Of a DNA stretch of 64,000 nucleotides, positions 28,678 through 49,924 are shown in pieces. Under the pieces are notes generated by a model. That model was not told where the DNA came from. It was given only the letters and a program-made list of their open reading frames with translations, and ran no database searches. How positions within the stretch are numbered: the first letter of the stretch is position 1; each line of letters opens with the position of its first letter. The DNA is from a virus (lineage: Duplodnaviria; Caudoviricetes), in IMG/VR virus record IMGVR_UViG_2524614838_000004, positions 1-64,000 of that record; one strand, written 5' to 3'. Both the position numbers and the translations under genes were made by a program.

Positions 28678-30066
28678 ATGAAAGATGTAATTATAGACTA
28701 CTTCTGCGGTGGTGGAGGTGTAAGTGTTGGTGGACAGATGGCCTGGGGGCGTAGCTTCGATTTTGCAATTAATCATAGTCCTTCAGCCATATCAATGCAC
28801 AAATACAATCACCCGTATACGCACCATTTTCCAGAAGATATCATGAGAGTAAAAATTGGAAAATTTCTTTCATGGGGGCAGAGAGTTAGCTTTGTTTGGG
28901 CAAGTCCAGACTGTACCTCGCATTCGAATGCAAAAGGAGATAAGCCCATAGAAAGAGGATTGCGAATACTTCCAATGGGTGTCTGGAAGCAATGCAAACT
29001 GATTTTAAAAGCAACAGGGAAAGTTCCAGAAGTTATTATGATGGAAAACGTTAAAGAAATCCAGAAATGGGGACCTCTAGATAAGAACGGTAAGCCCATT
29101 AAGGCCCGTGAAAGTGAGTATTACAATAAATTTATTCGCCTTATGAAAGCTTTTGGGTATGAGTTTGAATGCAGGGTTTTAAATTCTGCTGATTATGGAG
29201 CGCATACAGCCAGGGTGCGCTGGTATGGACAATTTAGGTGTGATGGTAGGCCGATTGTTTGGCCGGAGCAGACACATTCTAAAGGTGGTGTAAATGGCCT
29301 AAAGCCTTGGGAGCCGATTAGTCAGGATATTGATTTTACGGATTTAGGCAACCCTATATTTACTAGGAAACGGCCTTTGAAAGATAAGACACTGAGCCGT
29401 ATCGCAGCCGGGATTAAAAAGTTTGTAATTGATGATCAGAACCGGTTTATTCTTCCGGACAAAGTGGCGGCGCCGTTTTTAATACAATATCATTCCGAAA
29501 CAGTAAAGGGAGAGGTCCGGGGCCAGAGTTTAAAGGAGCCAATACAGACTATTGATACTGCAAACCGTTATGCTCTTGTAACCTGTTTCCTATCGAAGTT
29601 TTATAAGACAGGAACGGGCCAGACAATAAATGAGCCAATCCATACGATAACCACCTCTCCTGGGCATTTTGCTTTGGTGTCAGCTTTCTTGATTAAATAT
29701 TACAGCGGAGACATCGGCCAGAGTTTAAACGAGCCAATCCATACGATTGTCACAAAGGACCGGTTTGGTCTTGTCCTTGTGGTAATAGATGGAGTAACAT
29801 ACCAAATCATAGATATATGGTTCCGAATGTTGAAGCCTGAAGAACTGAAATTGGGACAGGGATTTCCAAAGGATTATATCATTGATTTTAAAATGCCGAA
29901 TGGTAAGCCTTATCCTAAAACAATGCAGGTTGAGAAAATCGGAAACAGCGTTGTCCCCCTGATGGCAGAGAAGCTTTGTTATACAGCTTGCCCTTATCTA
30001 AAGGTGGGGGAACGAATGCCGAACATGAGGATTGATGATAGCCAGGAGCAGCTTAGGTTTGCTTAA
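28678..30066 (+). CDS. C5-cytosine DNA methyltransferase
   Basis: DYFCGGGG, WASPDC (PC-equivalent), MENV, ADYGA..AR.R, KIGNSV. Confidence 0.9.
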   Translation: MKDVIIDYFCGGGGVSVGGQMAWGRSFDFAINHSPSAISMHKYNHPYTHHFPEDIMRVKIGKFLSWGQRVSFVWASPDCTSHSNAKGDKPIERGLRILPMGVWKQCKLILKATGKVPEVIMMENVKEIQKWGPLDKNGKPIKARESEYYNKFIRLMKAFGYEFECRVLNSADYGAHTARVRWYGQFRCDGRPIVWPEQTHSKGGVNGLKPWEPISQDIDFTDLGNPIFTRKRPLKDKTLSRIAAGIKKFVIDDQNRFILPDKVAAPFLIQYHSETVKGEVRGQSLKEPIQTIDTANRYALVTCFLSKFYKTGTGQTINEPIHTITTSPGHFALVSAFLIKYYSGDIGQSLNEPIHTIVTKDRFGLVLVVIDGVTYQIIDIWFRMLKPEELKLGQGFPKDYIIDFKMPNGKPYPKTMQVEKIGNSVVPLMAEKLCYTACPYLKVGERMPNMRIDDSQEQLRFA

Positions 30067-30344: not shown

Positions 30345-30821
30345 ATGAGCAGTAGGCCAGAGGTTACAAAATTTTTATCATTGTCTATCCAGAAGCACAT
30401 AAACCCCAATAATGACCCAAGAATTTACTGGGCGGCAGAAGTGACATTTGACTATGCCACCAGTAATGCGGTCCGGGTCGATTATATGAAATTTAAACCA
30501 GTAAACAATACGGTATCTGGTATTGAAAAGGGGGACTTCTACTGCTTTGAAGTGAAGTCCTCGGTGGAAGATTTTCATTCAAAGAACGGACATAATTTCT
30601 TGGGCGATTTCAATTATTATGTCATGCCTGAGGAAGTATACGAAAAAGTGAAGAATGAAATACCGTACAGAATCGGGGTATATGTTCCTGATGGAAAGAA
30701 TTATCAGGGCGATTGGTATGATTTAAAATCTGTCAAGAAAGCCGTGAGGAAAGACAGGGACAGATCGGTACCAGAAATGTTGCTAATGATGTTTCGGTCA
30801 GCAACAAGGAGAAGTGTCTAA
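30345..30821 (+). CDS. PD-(D/E)xK nuclease-like protein (MmcB-like)
   Basis: AEV...RVDY...CFEVKSS.EDF pattern. Confidence 0.6.
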   Translation: MSSRPEVTKFLSLSIQKHINPNNDPRIYWAAEVTFDYATSNAVRVDYMKFKPVNNTVSGIEKGDFYCFEVKSSVEDFHSKNGHNFLGDFNYYVMPEEVYEKVKNEIPYRIGVYVPDGKNYQGDWYDLKSVKKAVRKDRDRSVPEMLLMMFRSATRRSV

Positions 30822-30858
30822 TCTGGAATTCTCTTAGCAGTGGAAGAAAGGAAGCATT

Positions 30859-31125
30859 ATGGAAATAGGCGAATTAGATATGCATTGTGGCAACTGTGGT
30901 GTAATTGATTATTGCACAGAACCGTTTGAAACGCCAGCTTTATGCTGTGTCAGTGCACTTGCTGATGTTTCCGAAGAAGATTATATTCAGCTGGCAGAAG
31001 AAATAACGTCAGAGGAAATTGAAGAGAAACAGCGGCAGTATGAAGAAAATGGTGTGGGCTGGACGGACGAGGATAAAGGGGCTATTTGCGATATCGTACT
31101 GGAAAAATTGTTTTCAAAAGAATAG
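30859..31125 (+). CDS. Hypothetical acidic protein
   Basis: RBS; CGNC motif. Confidence 0.6.
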   Translation: MEIGELDMHCGNCGVIDYCTEPFETPALCCVSALADVSEEDYIQLAEEITSEEIEEKQRQYEENGVGWTDEDKGAICDIVLEKLFSKE

Positions 31126-31154
31126 GATTTAAAAGAAATATTGTTCCTTGATAA

Positions 31155-31183
31155 TTGAATATTGATGGTTGGTGGTGTATAAT
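31155..31183 (+). promoter_or_regulatory. Moron A promoter containing the left 17-nt inverted repeat (31157-31173)
   Basis: TTGAAT-17-TATAAT; GAATATTGATGGTTGGT. Confidence 0.75.
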
Positions 31184-31217
31184 TATCTTATCAAATTTTA
31201 TACAAGGGGGATAAGAA

Positions 31218-31589
31218 ATGGAGCAAAGAATTATTAATGGTCAAGCATATGCACACCCGTTTGAGTACATCATGCGTGACGTATTCCAATGTGACAGAGG
31301 CGGAGCTTGCGGAATGGCAGATGCTGATTTTATTAGAAAGCATCCTTATACAGCGGTAGCAGCAACATGTATGTACATATATGCTAATGCCGACGAGAAG
31401 AAAAAAGAAGAAATAGAGAAATTTCTTGAAGATGCCTATTTTCATTTCCAATTTGACTTAGACACACTTCTCTCATTTGAAACGAATGAGAAAGAAATTG
31501 ATGGTGGATCATATACTTTGAGTTATGATAACGGAGAAGCAACAATTGAGGCGCTTGAAGAAAAGTTCAGGAATATTTGTAAGAAATAA
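31218..31589 (+). CDS. Moron A, hypothetical acidic protein
   Basis: Own promoter, RBS and terminator. Confidence 0.75.
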   Translation: MEQRIINGQAYAHPFEYIMRDVFQCDRGGACGMADADFIRKHPYTAVAATCMYIYANADEKKKEEIEKFLEDAYFHFQFDLDTLLSFETNEKEIDGGSYTLSYDNGEATIEALEEKFRNICKK

Positions 31590-31593
31590 TTGT

Positions 31594-31629
31594 AAAAACC
31601 AACTATCAATATTCGGTAGTTGGTTTTTT
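31594..31629 (+). terminator. Moron A intrinsic terminator containing the right repeat (31598-31614)
   Basis: ACCAACTATC-AATATTC-GGTAGTTGGT followed by a T-run. Confidence 0.8.
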
Positions 31630-31641
31630 GTTACCCAAAAT

Positions 31642-31689
31642 GAAAGGAGGTCGGAGCTTCTGGCCAGGAGACACGTGTCGGCTCCTTTC
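31642..31689 (+). promoter_or_regulatory. SD-sequestering twin-palindrome leader, copy 3
   Basis: GAAAGGAG/CTCCTTTC stem enclosing CTGGCCAG and GACACGTGTC; ATG 6 nt after the stem. Confidence 0.7.
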
Positions 31690-31695
31690 GAGAAA

Positions 31696-32790
31696 ATGTA
31701 TTTGCTTAAAGAAGGATTGAAATTCCCTAAAACAACGTTTGTCAATATGAAACATATGCCATTTGAGATAAAACCATCTTTTAGCGCACAGCGCATAGTA
31801 CAGTGGCACGAACATTGGGGTGGATTAATTTACATAGCATTTAGCGGAGGTCTTGATAGCACGGTGTTGGCTCATTTAGTCTGCATGACTTATCGAGAAT
31901 ATGGACTGACCGGAGAGATACCATTGGTTTTTTGTGATACTGGAGTGGAATTCCCGGAGATTAGAAAATTTGTTAAGGAATATGTCGCATGGTTGAAAAC
32001 CCAATTTCCAGAGCTGACTATTACTTTAAAAATAATGTACCCAAAACATAATTTCAAGTGGGTGTGTGAGCATAAAGGATTTCCTCTGATCAGCAAAGAT
32101 ACAGCCAGTAAGATTAAAAAGTTAAGACATGGAAAACTAAGCGAGAAGTATCGCAATTATCTTCTTAATGGTGATGAACGTGGAAAATTTGGCATGTTGG
32201 CTAAAAAGTGGCATTATCTAGCGGATAAACAGATTACAGAAGAGGATATTTCGGACATATGCTGTGAGATTCTTAAAAAAGAACCTTTCAAGAGATATGT
32301 AAAGGAGACAGGTAGATATCCATTTATCGGGATTACACAGGACGAGGGATTTCGTCGAGAAAATCAGTACAATCATACGGGGTGCAACGTATATGATGGT
32401 ACTACCATTAAAAGTCAACCGTTAGGATTCTGGACGAATCAGGATGTTCTACAGTATAAAATGGAGAATGAAATTCCCATTTGCTGTGTATATGGAGAGG
32501 TAAGAAAGAATCATTGTGGGATATATGAATTAACGGGAGAACAAAGAACTGGTTGTATCATATGTGGCTTTGGCTGTCATCTGGAAGCAGAGCCGAATCG
32601 CATACAACGCCTGGGAACTTCTTCTATTGATACACATAGAGAAGTATATAATTGGGGAATGAGAATTGAGAACAATGGAGTTACTTATCAAGAAGCATTG
32701 AAACATTGTGGCGTAGCTACGGAGACCTGGGAATCGATTGGGCAAATGAATCTTGCTGATTTTCTGAATGAAGAAAGGAAGGAACTCTGA
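31696..32790 (+). CDS. PAPS-reductase-family (PP-loop) protein
   Basis: AFSGGLDSTVL, CDTGVEFPE, CC..LKK, QRTGC..CGFG. Confidence 0.85.
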   Translation: MYLLKEGLKFPKTTFVNMKHMPFEIKPSFSAQRIVQWHEHWGGLIYIAFSGGLDSTVLAHLVCMTYREYGLTGEIPLVFCDTGVEFPEIRKFVKEYVAWLKTQFPELTITLKIMYPKHNFKWVCEHKGFPLISKDTASKIKKLRHGKLSEKYRNYLLNGDERGKFGMLAKKWHYLADKQITEEDISDICCEILKKEPFKRYVKETGRYPFIGITQDEGFRRENQYNHTGCNVYDGTTIKSQPLGFWTNQDVLQYKMENEIPICCVYGEVRKNHCGIYELTGEQRTGCIICGFGCHLEAEPNRIQRLGTSSIDTHREVYNWGMRIENNGVTYQEALKHCGVATETWESIGQMNLADFLNEERKEL

Positions 32791-34379: not shown

Positions 34380-35417
34380 ATGAATGGACAAACTGTTAAA
34401 GCACAGGTTATCAATAATATTATTGTTGCTATGGCAGGGCATGTGGCGAAAGATGTTCTGGATATTCTTCATCAGGTGATTGTAAAAGAATTTGTAAATG
34501 TCAATATGGAAGAGATAACAACCCTCCCGGCAGAGTACCAGAATGATACGGATCAGAAGAATAAGTATATCATTCAGCTTTTCATCGTCAAGAAGAAAAT
34601 CAAGGATAATACAAAGGAAGCGTATCTTAGTGCCATTAAGCGTCTGATTACCCTGATTGATAAGCCATTGGACCGAATAGAGGAATCCGATATCAGCTAT
34701 TATCTGTCCTGGTATGAGAAGCGGAATATTAATGCCGGCGGTAAGAAGAATCAGGCCGTGACCGTGAATAATGAAAGACGTTTCCTGTCAGCATTCTACA
34801 CCTGGATGAGGAAGGAAAAGTTAATCAGTGACAATCCTGTGGAGGCAACAGATCCGCTGAAAACAATTCGAAAGCCGATTGATTATTTTAAACCAGAAGA
34901 GATGGCGAAGATGAGGGACGCATGCAAGAATTCTAGAGATCGCGCATTAATTGAAGTGTTGCGGAGCACCGGGGCCAGAGTGGGAGAGTTGGTTGAGATC
35001 ACCCTTGACCAGATAGACTGGAATACCGGGGATATTATGATTCAGGGGGAAAAGAATGACAGGTATGAGCCTATATTCTTAGATGATGAAGCGCGGTATT
35101 ATTACAGGCAGTATCTGGATTTAAGGAATGATGAAAGTCCGTTTATGTTTCCACAATGTAGGGCACCTTATTGGAAAATGTCAACGTCTGGAATCCGGAG
35201 CGTTATAAAAACCATTGGCAATCGAGCAAAGTTGAAATGCCGAGTGTATCCTCATAAATTGCGTAAAACTCTGGGAATGAGCCTTAAAAACAAGGGAGTG
35301 GACCTTGGCACCATTCAGGAGATTTTGAGGCATTCCAGTCCGTCAGTAACGGCTATTTATTACGCTCAATCTACACCGAATACATTAAGAAGTGTGAGAG
35401 AGAGGTGTGCAGGATAA
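34380..35417 (+). CDS. Tyrosine recombinase 2 (with N-terminal SAM-like domain)
   Basis: STGARVGE, PHKLRKT, ILRHSS..VTAIY. Confidence 0.9.
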   Translation: MNGQTVKAQVINNIIVAMAGHVAKDVLDILHQVIVKEFVNVNMEEITTLPAEYQNDTDQKNKYIIQLFIVKKKIKDNTKEAYLSAIKRLITLIDKPLDRIEESDISYYLSWYEKRNINAGGKKNQAVTVNNERRFLSAFYTWMRKEKLISDNPVEATDPLKTIRKPIDYFKPEEMAKMRDACKNSRDRALIEVLRSTGARVGELVEITLDQIDWNTGDIMIQGEKNDRYEPIFLDDEARYYYRQYLDLRNDESPFMFPQCRAPYWKMSTSGIRSVIKTIGNRAKLKCRVYPHKLRKTLGMSLKNKGVDLGTIQEILRHSSPSVTAIYYAQSTPNTLRSVRERCAG

Positions 35418-48449: not shown

Positions 48450-48522
48450 GGACCCTTAGCTCAGAGGTCAGAGCCTCCGGCTTCTAACCGGAATGTCCTG
48501 GGTTCGAATCCCAAAGGGTCCA
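48450..48522 (+). tRNA. tRNA-Arg(TCT)
   Basis: GGACCCT/AGGGTCC acceptor, TCCGG-CTTCTAA-CCGGA, GGTTCGAATCC. Confidence 0.9.
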
Positions 48523-48700: not shown

Positions 48701-48772
48701 TGGGCTATTGCCAAACGGTAAGGCACAGGATTTTGATTCCTGCATTTCCCGGTTCGAATCCGGGTAGCCTGA
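48701..48772 (+). tRNA. tRNA-Gln(TTG)
   Basis: TGGGCTA/TAGCCTG acceptor, CAGGA-TTTTGAT-TCCTG, GGTTCGAATCC. Confidence 0.9.
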
Positions 48773-48787
48773 TTTGCACATTGGAAA

Positions 48788-48816
48788 TTGAATATTGATG
48801 GTTGGTGTGGTATAAT
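48788..48816 (+). promoter_or_regulatory. Moron B promoter containing the left 17-nt inverted repeat (48790-48806)
   Basis: TTGAAT-17-TATAAT with TGn; repeat identical to moron A. Confidence 0.75.
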
Positions 48817-48847: not shown

Positions 48848-49882
48848 ATGGATAAACGATATCAGGTTTTTGTTAGTTCAACATATAAAGATTTACAAGA
48901 TGAGCGTAAAGAAGTTATGCAAGCATTACTTGAATTAGACTGCATACCGGCTGGAATGGAACTTTTTCCAGCTTCGAATGATGACCAATGGACTTTAATA
49001 AAAAAAGTTATTGATGACTGTGACTATTATATTTTGATTTTAGCAGGTAGATATGGTTCTGTTAATGAAGATGGTATGGGTTATACTGAAATGGAATATC
49101 GATATGCTTTGGCGGCGAATAAGCCTATAATAGCTTTTCTGCATAAAAATCCAGGAGATATATCATCAGCTAAAACTGAGGATACGCAAGAAGGTAAGGA
49201 AAGATTAAATCTATTTAGGGATTTGGCCCAAAAAAAGATGACTAAATATTGGACTAACCCTTACGATCTAGGAAGCGTAGTTTCAAGGAGTATGATTACT
49301 CTTATTAAAACATTTCCTGCTACAGGGTGGGTCAAAGCTGATAATATAACAGATGAAAATACGATGAAAGAATTACTTAGACTTCAAAAAGAAAACAAAG
49401 AATTAAAAGAACAACTGGAGTTAAGTAATATTCAAGCACCTGATGGAGCGGAAAATTTCTCACAAGGTGAAGATACAATTGTATTGAATTTCGTGTATAG
49501 GTATTTTGATAAACAAAACAATAGATATTCAAGCTCAATGGATTTTGTGTTTACATGGAATGAATTATTTAAAGTTGTAGCTCCTTATTTGGTTAATGAA
49601 TGTGACGAGGTAGATATGACAGAGGTTATTACAACCTACATGAAAGAAAAATGTCATGATGAAATAATAATTTTAAAGTCAGAAATGAAAATACGGTCAT
49701 TTGATAAAATTCAATTAAAAGTTGGTCATTTTCAAATAATCAAAGTACAATTTCAAGCACTTGGATTGATACAGAAAAGTATCAAGAATAGAAGTGTTAA
49801 AGATAACTTAACATACTGGAAATTAACCCCATATGGAGAGAGGATAATGACTCAATTAGTCGCAATTAAAAAAGAAAAATAA
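48848..49882 (+). CDS. Moron B, DUF4062 (TIR-like) domain protein
   Basis: YQVFVSSTYKDL.DER..V..ALLE...P.GMELFPA...CDYYILILAGRYGS...TEMEY.YA; AT-rich. Confidence 0.85.
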   Translation: MDKRYQVFVSSTYKDLQDERKEVMQALLELDCIPAGMELFPASNDDQWTLIKKVIDDCDYYILILAGRYGSVNEDGMGYTEMEYRYALAANKPIIAFLHKNPGDISSAKTEDTQEGKERLNLFRDLAQKKMTKYWTNPYDLGSVVSRSMITLIKTFPATGWVKADNITDENTMKELLRLQKENKELKEQLELSNIQAPDGAENFSQGEDTIVLNFVYRYFDKQNNRYSSSMDFVFTWNELFKVVAPYLVNECDEVDMTEVITTYMKEKCHDEIIILKSEMKIRSFDKIQLKVGHFQIIKVQFQALGLIQKSIKNRSVKDNLTYWKLTPYGERIMTQLVAIKKEK

Positions 49883-49889
49883 GATTTCG

Positions 49890-49924
49890 CTACCAACTAT
49901 CAATATTCGGTTGGTAGTTTTTTT
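49890..49924 (+). terminator. Moron B intrinsic terminator containing the right repeat (49892-49908)
   Basis: CTACCAACT-ATCAATATTC-GGTTGGTAG followed by a T-run. Confidence 0.8.

Follow-up and report, generated by a model that had tools for sequence, protein, structure and literature searches.

A recurrent accessory-gene cassette of Lachnospiraceae prophages with a promoter complementary to its own terminator, and its possible part in antitermination

Cassette A and its setting in the prophage

The stretch of DNA considered here, 64,000 nucleotides long and called the window below, is a prophage of the 6.4-Mb genome G000. Positions ~31127-31640 of the window hold cassette A, in which one gene is enclosed by two short sequences (the arms) that are complementary to each other. 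The parts of the cassette and three genes of its surroundings are as follows.

28678-30066, plus strand: C5 DNA methyltransferase gene, followed by small ORFs and then by cassette A
31127..31156, plus strand: A/T-rich, UP-element-like upstream part of the promoter module, conserved with other cassettes
31155..31183, plus strand: predicted sigma-A-type promoter TTGAAT-17-TATAAT (promoter scan, 10/12 matches; predicted start ~31190)
31157..31173, plus strand: left repeat GAATATTGATGGTTGGT, the putative antiterminator strand, found by repeat search and covarying with the right repeat
31218..31589, plus strand: cargo A, a 123-aa protein without an assigned family and the sole ORF between the arms
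31594..31632, plus strand: predicted intrinsic terminator, a 14-bp hairpin with the loop AAUAUUC and then UUUUUUGUU, from the fold of the own-promoter transcript
31598..31614, plus strand: right repeat ACCAACTATCAATATTC, which is the terminator 5' arm (10 nt) and the whole loop (7 nt)
start at about 31696, plus strand: PAPS-reductase-like gene downstream of cassette A, followed by further genes
34380-35417, plus strand: tyrosine recombinase gene in the middle of the prophage

An earlier sequence-only reading of this DNA claimed that the promoter spacer is the complement of the terminator. A repeat search of the window finds the inverted repeat 31157-31173 / 31598-31614 to be real, with 16/17 positions complementary (94%). 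The sole mismatch, a G at position 11 of the left repeat against a T in the right, is a G.U pair in plus-strand RNA, and all 17/17 positions can pair, as had been stated. There are 424 nt between the arms, whose starts are 441 nt apart, with a complete ORF in between. The left repeat overlaps the -35 box and the spacer of the promoter, and is part of a run of heptamers (TTGATAA/TTGAATA/TTGATGG/TTGGTGG). The right repeat was described as the 5' arm plus loop of the terminator hairpin, and repeat search and fold agree on this. The hairpin itself (31594-31628, with a 7-nt loop) is followed by a T-run of six T. It is present as claimed, but the stem given as 10 bp folds as 14 bp, and the 10 bp are only its G/C-containing core. 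The predicted fold shows no hairpin within the promoter module, whose partner is the terminator at the far end. A search of 30800-32000 against Rfam with E up to 5 returned no family match, only noise. The strand opposite the terminator was considered as well as a site for an antisense promoter; this was rejected, there being no -10 at a usable distance.

The genes around cassette A are all on the plus strand. In the gap that separates the terminator from the PAPS-reductase-like gene, the promoter scan found no promoter-like site; the genes downstream therefore need transcription across the terminator. A close relative with the slot empty was looked for and not found; the cassette-free homologues of the PAPS-reductase-like gene are only 35-40% identical and so uninformative. 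Right after the terminator, at 31642-31689, there is a hairpin that pairs a Shine-Dalgarno-like word, GAAAGGAG, with CTCCTTTC and lies 6 nt ahead of the PAPS-reductase-like gene's ATG. This leader also stands behind the terminator in several relatives (L003, L004, L005, L028). Alongside the tyrosine recombinase gene in its middle, the prophage has a large ORF of serine-integrase size at its end (925-2541).

Recurrence of the frame and the variety of its cargo

Inverted repeats of 17 nt with at most one mismatch and 100-1500 nt apart are expected by chance at 0.48 per dinucleotide-shuffled window, and 19/60 shuffled windows had at least one. The pair of cassette A alone is not significant, and the case therefore rests on recurrence; it is recurrence, not the single pair, that rules out a chance origin of the design. 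Within the window, the identical pair of 17-mers is found again at 48790/49892 around an unrelated cargo (cassette B).

48450-48522: tRNA-Arg(TCT), upstream of tRNA-Gln
48701-48772: tRNA-Gln(TTG), immediately upstream of the cassette B promoter
48788..48816, plus strand: predicted cassette B promoter TTGAAT-17-TATAAT, with the identical left repeat at 48790-48806
48848..49882, plus strand: cargo B, a DUF4062-domain protein (PF13271) of low G+C (0.31)
49890..49924, plus strand: predicted cassette B terminator, with the identical right repeat at 49892-49908

The arms of cassette B are 1102 nt apart, again across a complete ORF. Its stem register is shifted by 2-3 nt (CTACCAACT/GGTTGGTAG) and the 3' arm differs, with the 17-mer unchanged. 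The upstream context resembles class II (the classes are given below) and the 3' arm is of type b, yet both ends carry class-I 17-mers; matched 17-mers track each other, not their flanks. The order of tRNA and then cassette, with other cargo, is also seen in the relatives L142, L148, L154 and L019.

A search of other genomes for the 17-mer pair, as the sequence-only reading had advised, was productive. In all, 111 non-identical cassettes were collected, each around a single and different cargo gene, from Lacrimispora and other Lachnospiraceae (Mediterraneibacter, Blautia, Dorea, Enterocloster); a first set of 70 of them was used for many of the counts below. A pattern search found the motif in 49/49 genus genomes, strongly enriched over a control with the pattern reversed. 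In a DNA search of 36 genus genomes, 28 had separate short matches to the promoter piece and to the terminator piece, with spacings that were often 300-1100 nt. The class-I promoter module was found in 56 contigs (Lacrimispora, Mediterraneibacter, Blautia, Dorea, Enterocloster, Lachnoclostridium, Tyzzerella and others), and also in viral contigs of IMG/VR, where scans with 15- and 17-nt patterns return mostly chance matches and only loci with paired sites were kept. The frames fall into two main classes.

Class I frame: promoter module ...TTGATAATT-GAATATTGATAGTTGGT, terminator ACCAACTATCAATATTC-GGTAGTTGG
Class II frame: promoter module ...CATTGAAAACT-TAATATTGATAGTTAGT, terminator ACTAACTATCAGTATTA-AGCTGGTAG

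Across cassettes the module 5' of the 17-mer is A/T-rich and UP-element-like, and most class-I cassettes have the same 30 nt ahead of the 17-mer. The -35 takes one of two positions relative to the 17-mer in 67/70 cassettes: TTGAAT stands at -2, TTGATA at +5, a shift of 7 nt, and the -10 follows after exactly 17 bp. By this geometry the predicted transcript begins downstream of the 17-mer, and at the level of sequence the earlier claim that the left repeat of cassette A precedes its start (~31190) extends to those same 67. Using crude ORF calls, 40/70 cassettes are co-oriented with both flanking genes (6 have one flank that could not be called). Others are antisense to their neighbours, for example G000:4622039-4622513, or stand before a convergent gene, and the complementarity is kept. 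Behind class-II terminators the word AAATCAGGTAAACTGAAATTT is often seen, reaching into the A/T-rich part of the next promoter module; examples downstream of terminators come from L002, L020, L144, L146 and L147.

The cargo is where cassettes differ. A single cargo gene lies on the cassette strand in 69/70 cases, and all 70 cargo proteins are different. Those that can be recognised include GNAT acetyltransferases, DUF2971 proteins (the PADLOC candidate PDC-S31), DUF4062 proteins (PF13271 was matched in 2 cargo proteins), an Mrr-type nuclease (Mrr_cat) and MsrA, besides a HAD hydrolase, an adenosine deaminase, a MutS domain V protein and many membrane proteins or proteins of unknown kind. Cargo A matched nothing in Pfam, PHROG or PADLOC. 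It has 11 homologues (59-97% identity); no relatives were found in IMG/VR, and the phage GenBank collection gave one weak 10% match only. Its structure model (pLDDT 91.7) consists of helices and one beta-hairpin, with a conserved Cys/Gly-rich loop, CDRGGACGMAD. Foldseek returned nothing for the model at E <=0.001 and no convincing PDB match, and the best VIA Z score, 5.7, is within noise for helical proteins. Cargo A homologues at 75% and 60% identity sit outside any such frame. Because these distant homologues occur without the frame, the frames are a property of these phages, with cargo captured into them. A copy of cassette A with 87% identical cargo is found in another context, on a contig labelled as a Paenibacillaceae MAG and in G032; there a GNAT cassette precedes it and a DUF4317 gene follows, the flanks are unrelated, and the homology begins at the A/T-rich part of the promoter module (~31127-31128). 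On these comparisons cassette A is one copy of a modular frame by which Lachnospiraceae prophages carry single accessory genes. The frame consists of a strong predicted sigma-A promoter module, the cargo and a predicted intrinsic terminator, and its -35/spacer sequence is the reverse complement of the terminator 5' arm and loop.

Inverted repeats around single, highly diverse genes, the occurrence of the same cassette in different contexts and the tyrosine recombinase gene at 34380-35417 could together mean that the arms act as DNA. In that case a mobile or invertible cassette would have them as its ends or as sites for recombination, and a recombinase, transposase or gene conversion would maintain their match. 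We regard this as distinctly unlikely. The block shared between copies of cassette A, ~31128-31640, runs ~29 nt and ~26 nt past the arms, and the arms are therefore not transposon-like termini; the alternative that the sequence-only reading itself had raised, a recombination site, is disfavoured, as is a transposon end by this extension of homology past both arms. Inversion of the segment as DNA had been named there as one outcome that would speak against the design, and no inverted forms were seen among the 70 cassettes: the cargo has the same orientation to promoter and terminator in 69/70, the -10 being next to the left arm, as seen in assemblies, not reads. Different matched variants coexist in one phage, which a single protein does not explain, G.U-type mismatches persist in many cassettes, and cassette B has no recombinase nearby.

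Genome G000 contains further copies of these modules. About 20 kb past the end of the window there is a class-II cassette on the minus strand, G000:C1:4622039-4622513, with a 139-aa cargo ORF (by crude calling) that overlaps the promoter 17-mer. It is flanked by a plus-strand gene for 1456 aa, tape-measure-like by its size, and by other plus-strand genes, and is thus antisense to them, with matched ends. Class-II modules or cassettes also occur outside the prophage (G000:C1:834750-835366, 2089147-2093000, 2650103, 3973837 and 4156642). In some of these, diverged terminators still pair with their own promoter through G.U; the one at G000:4156642 retains pairing by four G.U pairs. One cassette outside the prophage is apparently broken by a 398-aa minus-strand ORF. 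Around a third of the class-II promoter copies in G000 are without a recognisable complementary terminator. A solo class-I terminator with one loop change, G000:C1:5281066-5281098 on the minus strand, stands behind a chromosomal gene and near a tRNA gene, and no promoter module was found upstream of it.

Coupling of the two arms and predicted RNA folds

The match between the arms was compared with what exchanged partners would give. In the 70 cassettes, the arms pair at 1076/1120 positions (positions 1-16), which 0/5000 shuffles of the terminators reached. When the shuffling was restricted to groups of the same promoter class and terminator class, 41/5000 reached it. For the 111 cassettes the figure is 1697/1776, again with 0/5000 partner shuffles reaching it. 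A partner search that used no terminator consensus looked, up to 3 kb downstream of each class-I promoter, for the best RNA duplex; it covered the 54 sites with enough downstream DNA, and at 48 of them this duplex fell on a hairpin followed by a T-run. As partner of a terminator, its own upstream promoter beats the promoter of the next cassette by 13 to 4. A unit built around the junction, in which a terminator is inherited together with the next promoter, was rejected on this better match to the own upstream promoter.

The pairs found at three positions of the 111 cassettes were as follows.

Position 1: G-C 63, U-A 16, plus wobbles
Position 11: A-U 84, G-C 23, G.U 3, A.C 0
Position 15: G-C 78, A-U 14, G.U 12, A.C 4

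Compensated double changes occur at positions 1, 2, 10, 11, 15 and 17, among them changes in single lineages at position 2 (L008/L268), position 10 (L009) and position 17 (L148). At position 6 there is a double change only by way of G000:2092825, where promoter C6 is opposite G12 of a class-II terminator. By the counts at position 11, the G.U of cassette A is the intermediate between A-U and G-C. Position 1 (1/17) pairs with the last base of the loop, so its covariation cannot come from the hairpin stem. On the plus strand, G.U outnumbers A.C by 72 to 28, a ratio that shrinks to only 11 vs 8 when distinct position types are counted; the excess is suggestive of plus-strand specificity. The compensatory changes and the partner-shuffling tests support a coupling of the arms by selection, as opposed to chance or plain descent.

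It is worth setting this against the view that the frames are kept only as a good promoter, a good terminator and homology arms, much as in the PeSL cassettes discussed below, and that the complementarity is a functionless relic of an inverted duplication. Constant frames with variable cargo would suit such a history, as would conservation that ends near the transcript start and at the 5' arm, the cargo A homologues outside any frame, and the shuffling mediated by PeSL promoter/terminator repeats (PMC2839356). A relic, however, would decay by uncompensated changes only, and double compensatory changes are present at seven positions (position 6 only if G000:2092825 is counted). There is not one A.C at position 11 among 111 cassettes, and the partner-specific matching is above that of class-level shuffles. 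In our judgement the relic is very unlikely. We give a still smaller share, as something improbable, to the suggestion that both arms are bound, as operators, by one DNA-binding regulator, which would loop or co-regulate the cassette. In its favour, a TTGATAN heptamer run makes up the left arm and lies over the -35, which is an operator-like position. Yet cassette-specific matched variants are found in one phage (L008/L268, L002, L139), no conserved regulator gene accompanies the cassettes, and there is no apparent reason for placing an operator in a terminator hairpin.

What the pairing could do in RNA was addressed by folding, and all folding figures given here are equilibrium predictions. 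For the RNA 31120-31632, both the minimum-energy and the centroid structure have a long-range helix between promoter module and terminator that consumes both terminator arms; with wobble extensions the helix of cassette A comes to ~20-25 bp. RNA that starts at 31190 is predicted to form the 14-bp terminator hairpin. The earlier claim that pairing over 17 nt competes with the terminator stem is thus upheld by the predicted fold, which flips from terminator to long-range helix once the upstream arm is included. Over 70 cassettes the mean energy is -24.1 kcal/mol for the duplex vs -12.4 kcal/mol for the hairpin, and the duplex is the more stable in 67/70. Partition functions of 26 short cassettes give read-through RNA a helix probability of 0.93 and a terminator probability of 0.04, and give own-promoter RNA a terminator probability of 0.87. 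As long as the terminator is yet to be transcribed, the left arm is not unusually accessible, with an unpaired probability of 0.41 against 0.42 for average RNA.

The same covariation and folding evidence fits a long-range helix that is selected for some other job at the RNA level than antitermination. Examples would be an RNase III site that cuts the cargo from polycistronic phage RNA, or a structure that stabilises or silences read-through RNA. Stems that flank rRNAs are RNase III processing sites, and the helix of ~20-25 bp with wobbles has a length that RNase III could use. However, the complementarity always covers exactly the terminator 5' arm plus the loop, even where the hairpin is in another register. 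A processing stem would not need such coverage, whereas blocking a terminator does, and in any case the hairpin is necessarily lost once the helix forms. Another RNA role is unlikely, in our estimate.

A possible switch set by the promoter of origin

Prophages need to express cargo in the lysogen without their neighbouring lytic genes, yet lytic transcription has to run through the insertions. The textbook solution for read-through of prophage cargo is a processive antiterminator protein. For the cassettes described here, we infer a route that would depend on where a transcript begins. Transcripts from the cassette's own promoter would start ~17-24 nt downstream of the left arm; not containing that arm, they would let the terminator fold and would stop, and this termination would shield the downstream phage genes in the lysogen. 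Read-through transcripts from the upstream phage operon would include the left arm, which could pair with the emerging 5' arm and loop over 17-20 bp (~-24 vs ~-12 kcal/mol for the hairpin). With the hairpin blocked, RNA polymerase would proceed into the PAPS-reductase-like and following genes. Promoter activity, transcript start, terminator efficiency and antitermination itself are what we infer in this scheme.

We lean slightly towards the view that read-through RNA does ignore the cassette terminator. The fuller reading is about evenly balanced in our judgement: that the -35/spacer doubles as an RNA antiterminator across the whole cargo gene, giving Lachnospiraceae prophages a protein-free plug-in frame for defence and accessory genes in essential operons without polarity, with a terminator opaque to the cassette's own transcripts and transparent to those of the phage operon. 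Several points weigh against antitermination. The pairing must span 270-1600 nt in the short time before the 3' arm is made, which is a kinetic race. Antisense cassettes keep their pairing, some class-II promoters are without a matching terminator, and there is the solo terminator. This phage may also possess a processive antiterminator protein. Whatever the fate of the terminator, the conserved frames probably also provide homology for swapping cargo between phages.

Several known systems resemble parts of this arrangement. In 2000, Juhala, Hendrix et al. reportedly described morons, the promoter-gene-terminator units of lambdoid prophages. As in morons, one accessory gene, equipped with a sigma-70-type promoter and an intrinsic terminator of its own, sits between co-oriented phage genes; at the sequence level the promoter is directly 5' of the gene and the terminator directly 3'. 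The cargo (GNAT, DUF2971/PDC-S31, DUF4062, Mrr_cat) is typical of morons and defence genes too. In classical morons, however, promoter and terminator are unrelated, and late read-through depends on the processive antiterminators of the phage (N, Q), whereas here a conserved frame is reused for more than 100 cargos and has complementary, covarying ends.

Attenuators such as the trp leader, T-boxes and riboswitches share the competition of an upstream strand with the 3' arm for the terminator 5' arm, and the mutually exclusive structures. The cassettes likewise have an upstream strand that is complementary to the terminator 5' arm and, in the predicted folds, excludes the hairpin, and this alternative pairing is backed by covariation. 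Attenuators, though, act in a leader of ~200 nt or less that senses a ligand, a tRNA, a ribosome or a protein. No compact 5' leader with a sensor is found here: the arms span a complete ORF and match no Rfam family. The competing strand is part of a promoter and 270-1600 nt upstream, with the whole gene in between, and the promoter that made the RNA would itself be the 'signal'.

The 'fold-back inhibition' that protects IS10/IS50 from outside promoters is said to go back to Davis, Simons and Kleckner in 1985, and it is this that the cassettes resemble most closely in logic. There too, a sequence just 5' of the element's own start is complementary to a downstream segment, and the structure forms only in read-through RNA. 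The target in IS10/IS50 is the ribosome-binding site of the transposase and the result is silencing; in the cassettes a terminator is targeted, and read-through is predicted. In lambda sib/tI retroregulation, N-modified polymerase reads through the terminator and thereby completes an RNase III site. In lambda sib/tI, as it would here, the promoter from which an RNA started decides what becomes of it at a downstream terminator region, but through N-modified polymerase there and an upstream complementary strand here.

PeSL cassettes of T4-type phages are repeated strong sigma-70-like promoters with A/T-rich upstream sequence and terminator hairpins (Arbiol et al. 2010, PMC2839356). They mark the borders of variable accessory ORFs and likely promote modular shuffling (PMC2839356). 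Strong predicted promoters with an A/T-rich upstream region, repeated at the borders of variable ORFs, are present here as well. Among the marks of a PeSL is recombination between units, with gene shuffling or mini-circles as its products; in the present cassettes cargo differs within constant frames. The PeSL stem-loop is local, inside or beside the promoter, whereas here the promoter pairs with the terminator past its own gene; PeSLs belong to T4-type phages and the present frames to temperate Firmicute phages. PeSLs leave covariation across a gene unexplained.

Processive antitermination on mobile elements is known from lambda N/Q, HK022 put, conAn and Tn916 canT (PMC8191782, PMC11658703). 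The problem is a shared one: long operon transcripts must pass internal terminators that insulate a silent element. In these systems RNA polymerase is modified once and all downstream terminators are affected, whereas antitermination here would be specific to one terminator, free of protein and repeated for each cassette. Of the processive RNA elements (put, EAR, canT), none gave an Rfam match here, although a new element could escape Rfam. The design departs from defining features of each system compared, be it attenuators, morons, PeSLs or processive antitermination. The sequence-only reading knew of no description of this design, and the literature searched contained none, neither of the design nor of the motif strings.

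If the proposal is true, a terminator that is disabled only in upstream RNA, by a strand hidden in the cassette's own promoter, would be a self-contained alternative to an antiterminator protein. It would extend the logic of attenuation to the kilobase range and offer synthetic biology a natural cassette that is 'insulated but transparent'. Because the frames are easily recognised, they also flag more than 100 genes as candidates for expression in lysogeny, many being defence-like or of unknown kind. For the gut Lachnospiraceae phages, the proposal would explain how swappable cargo slots can exist in early and late operons.
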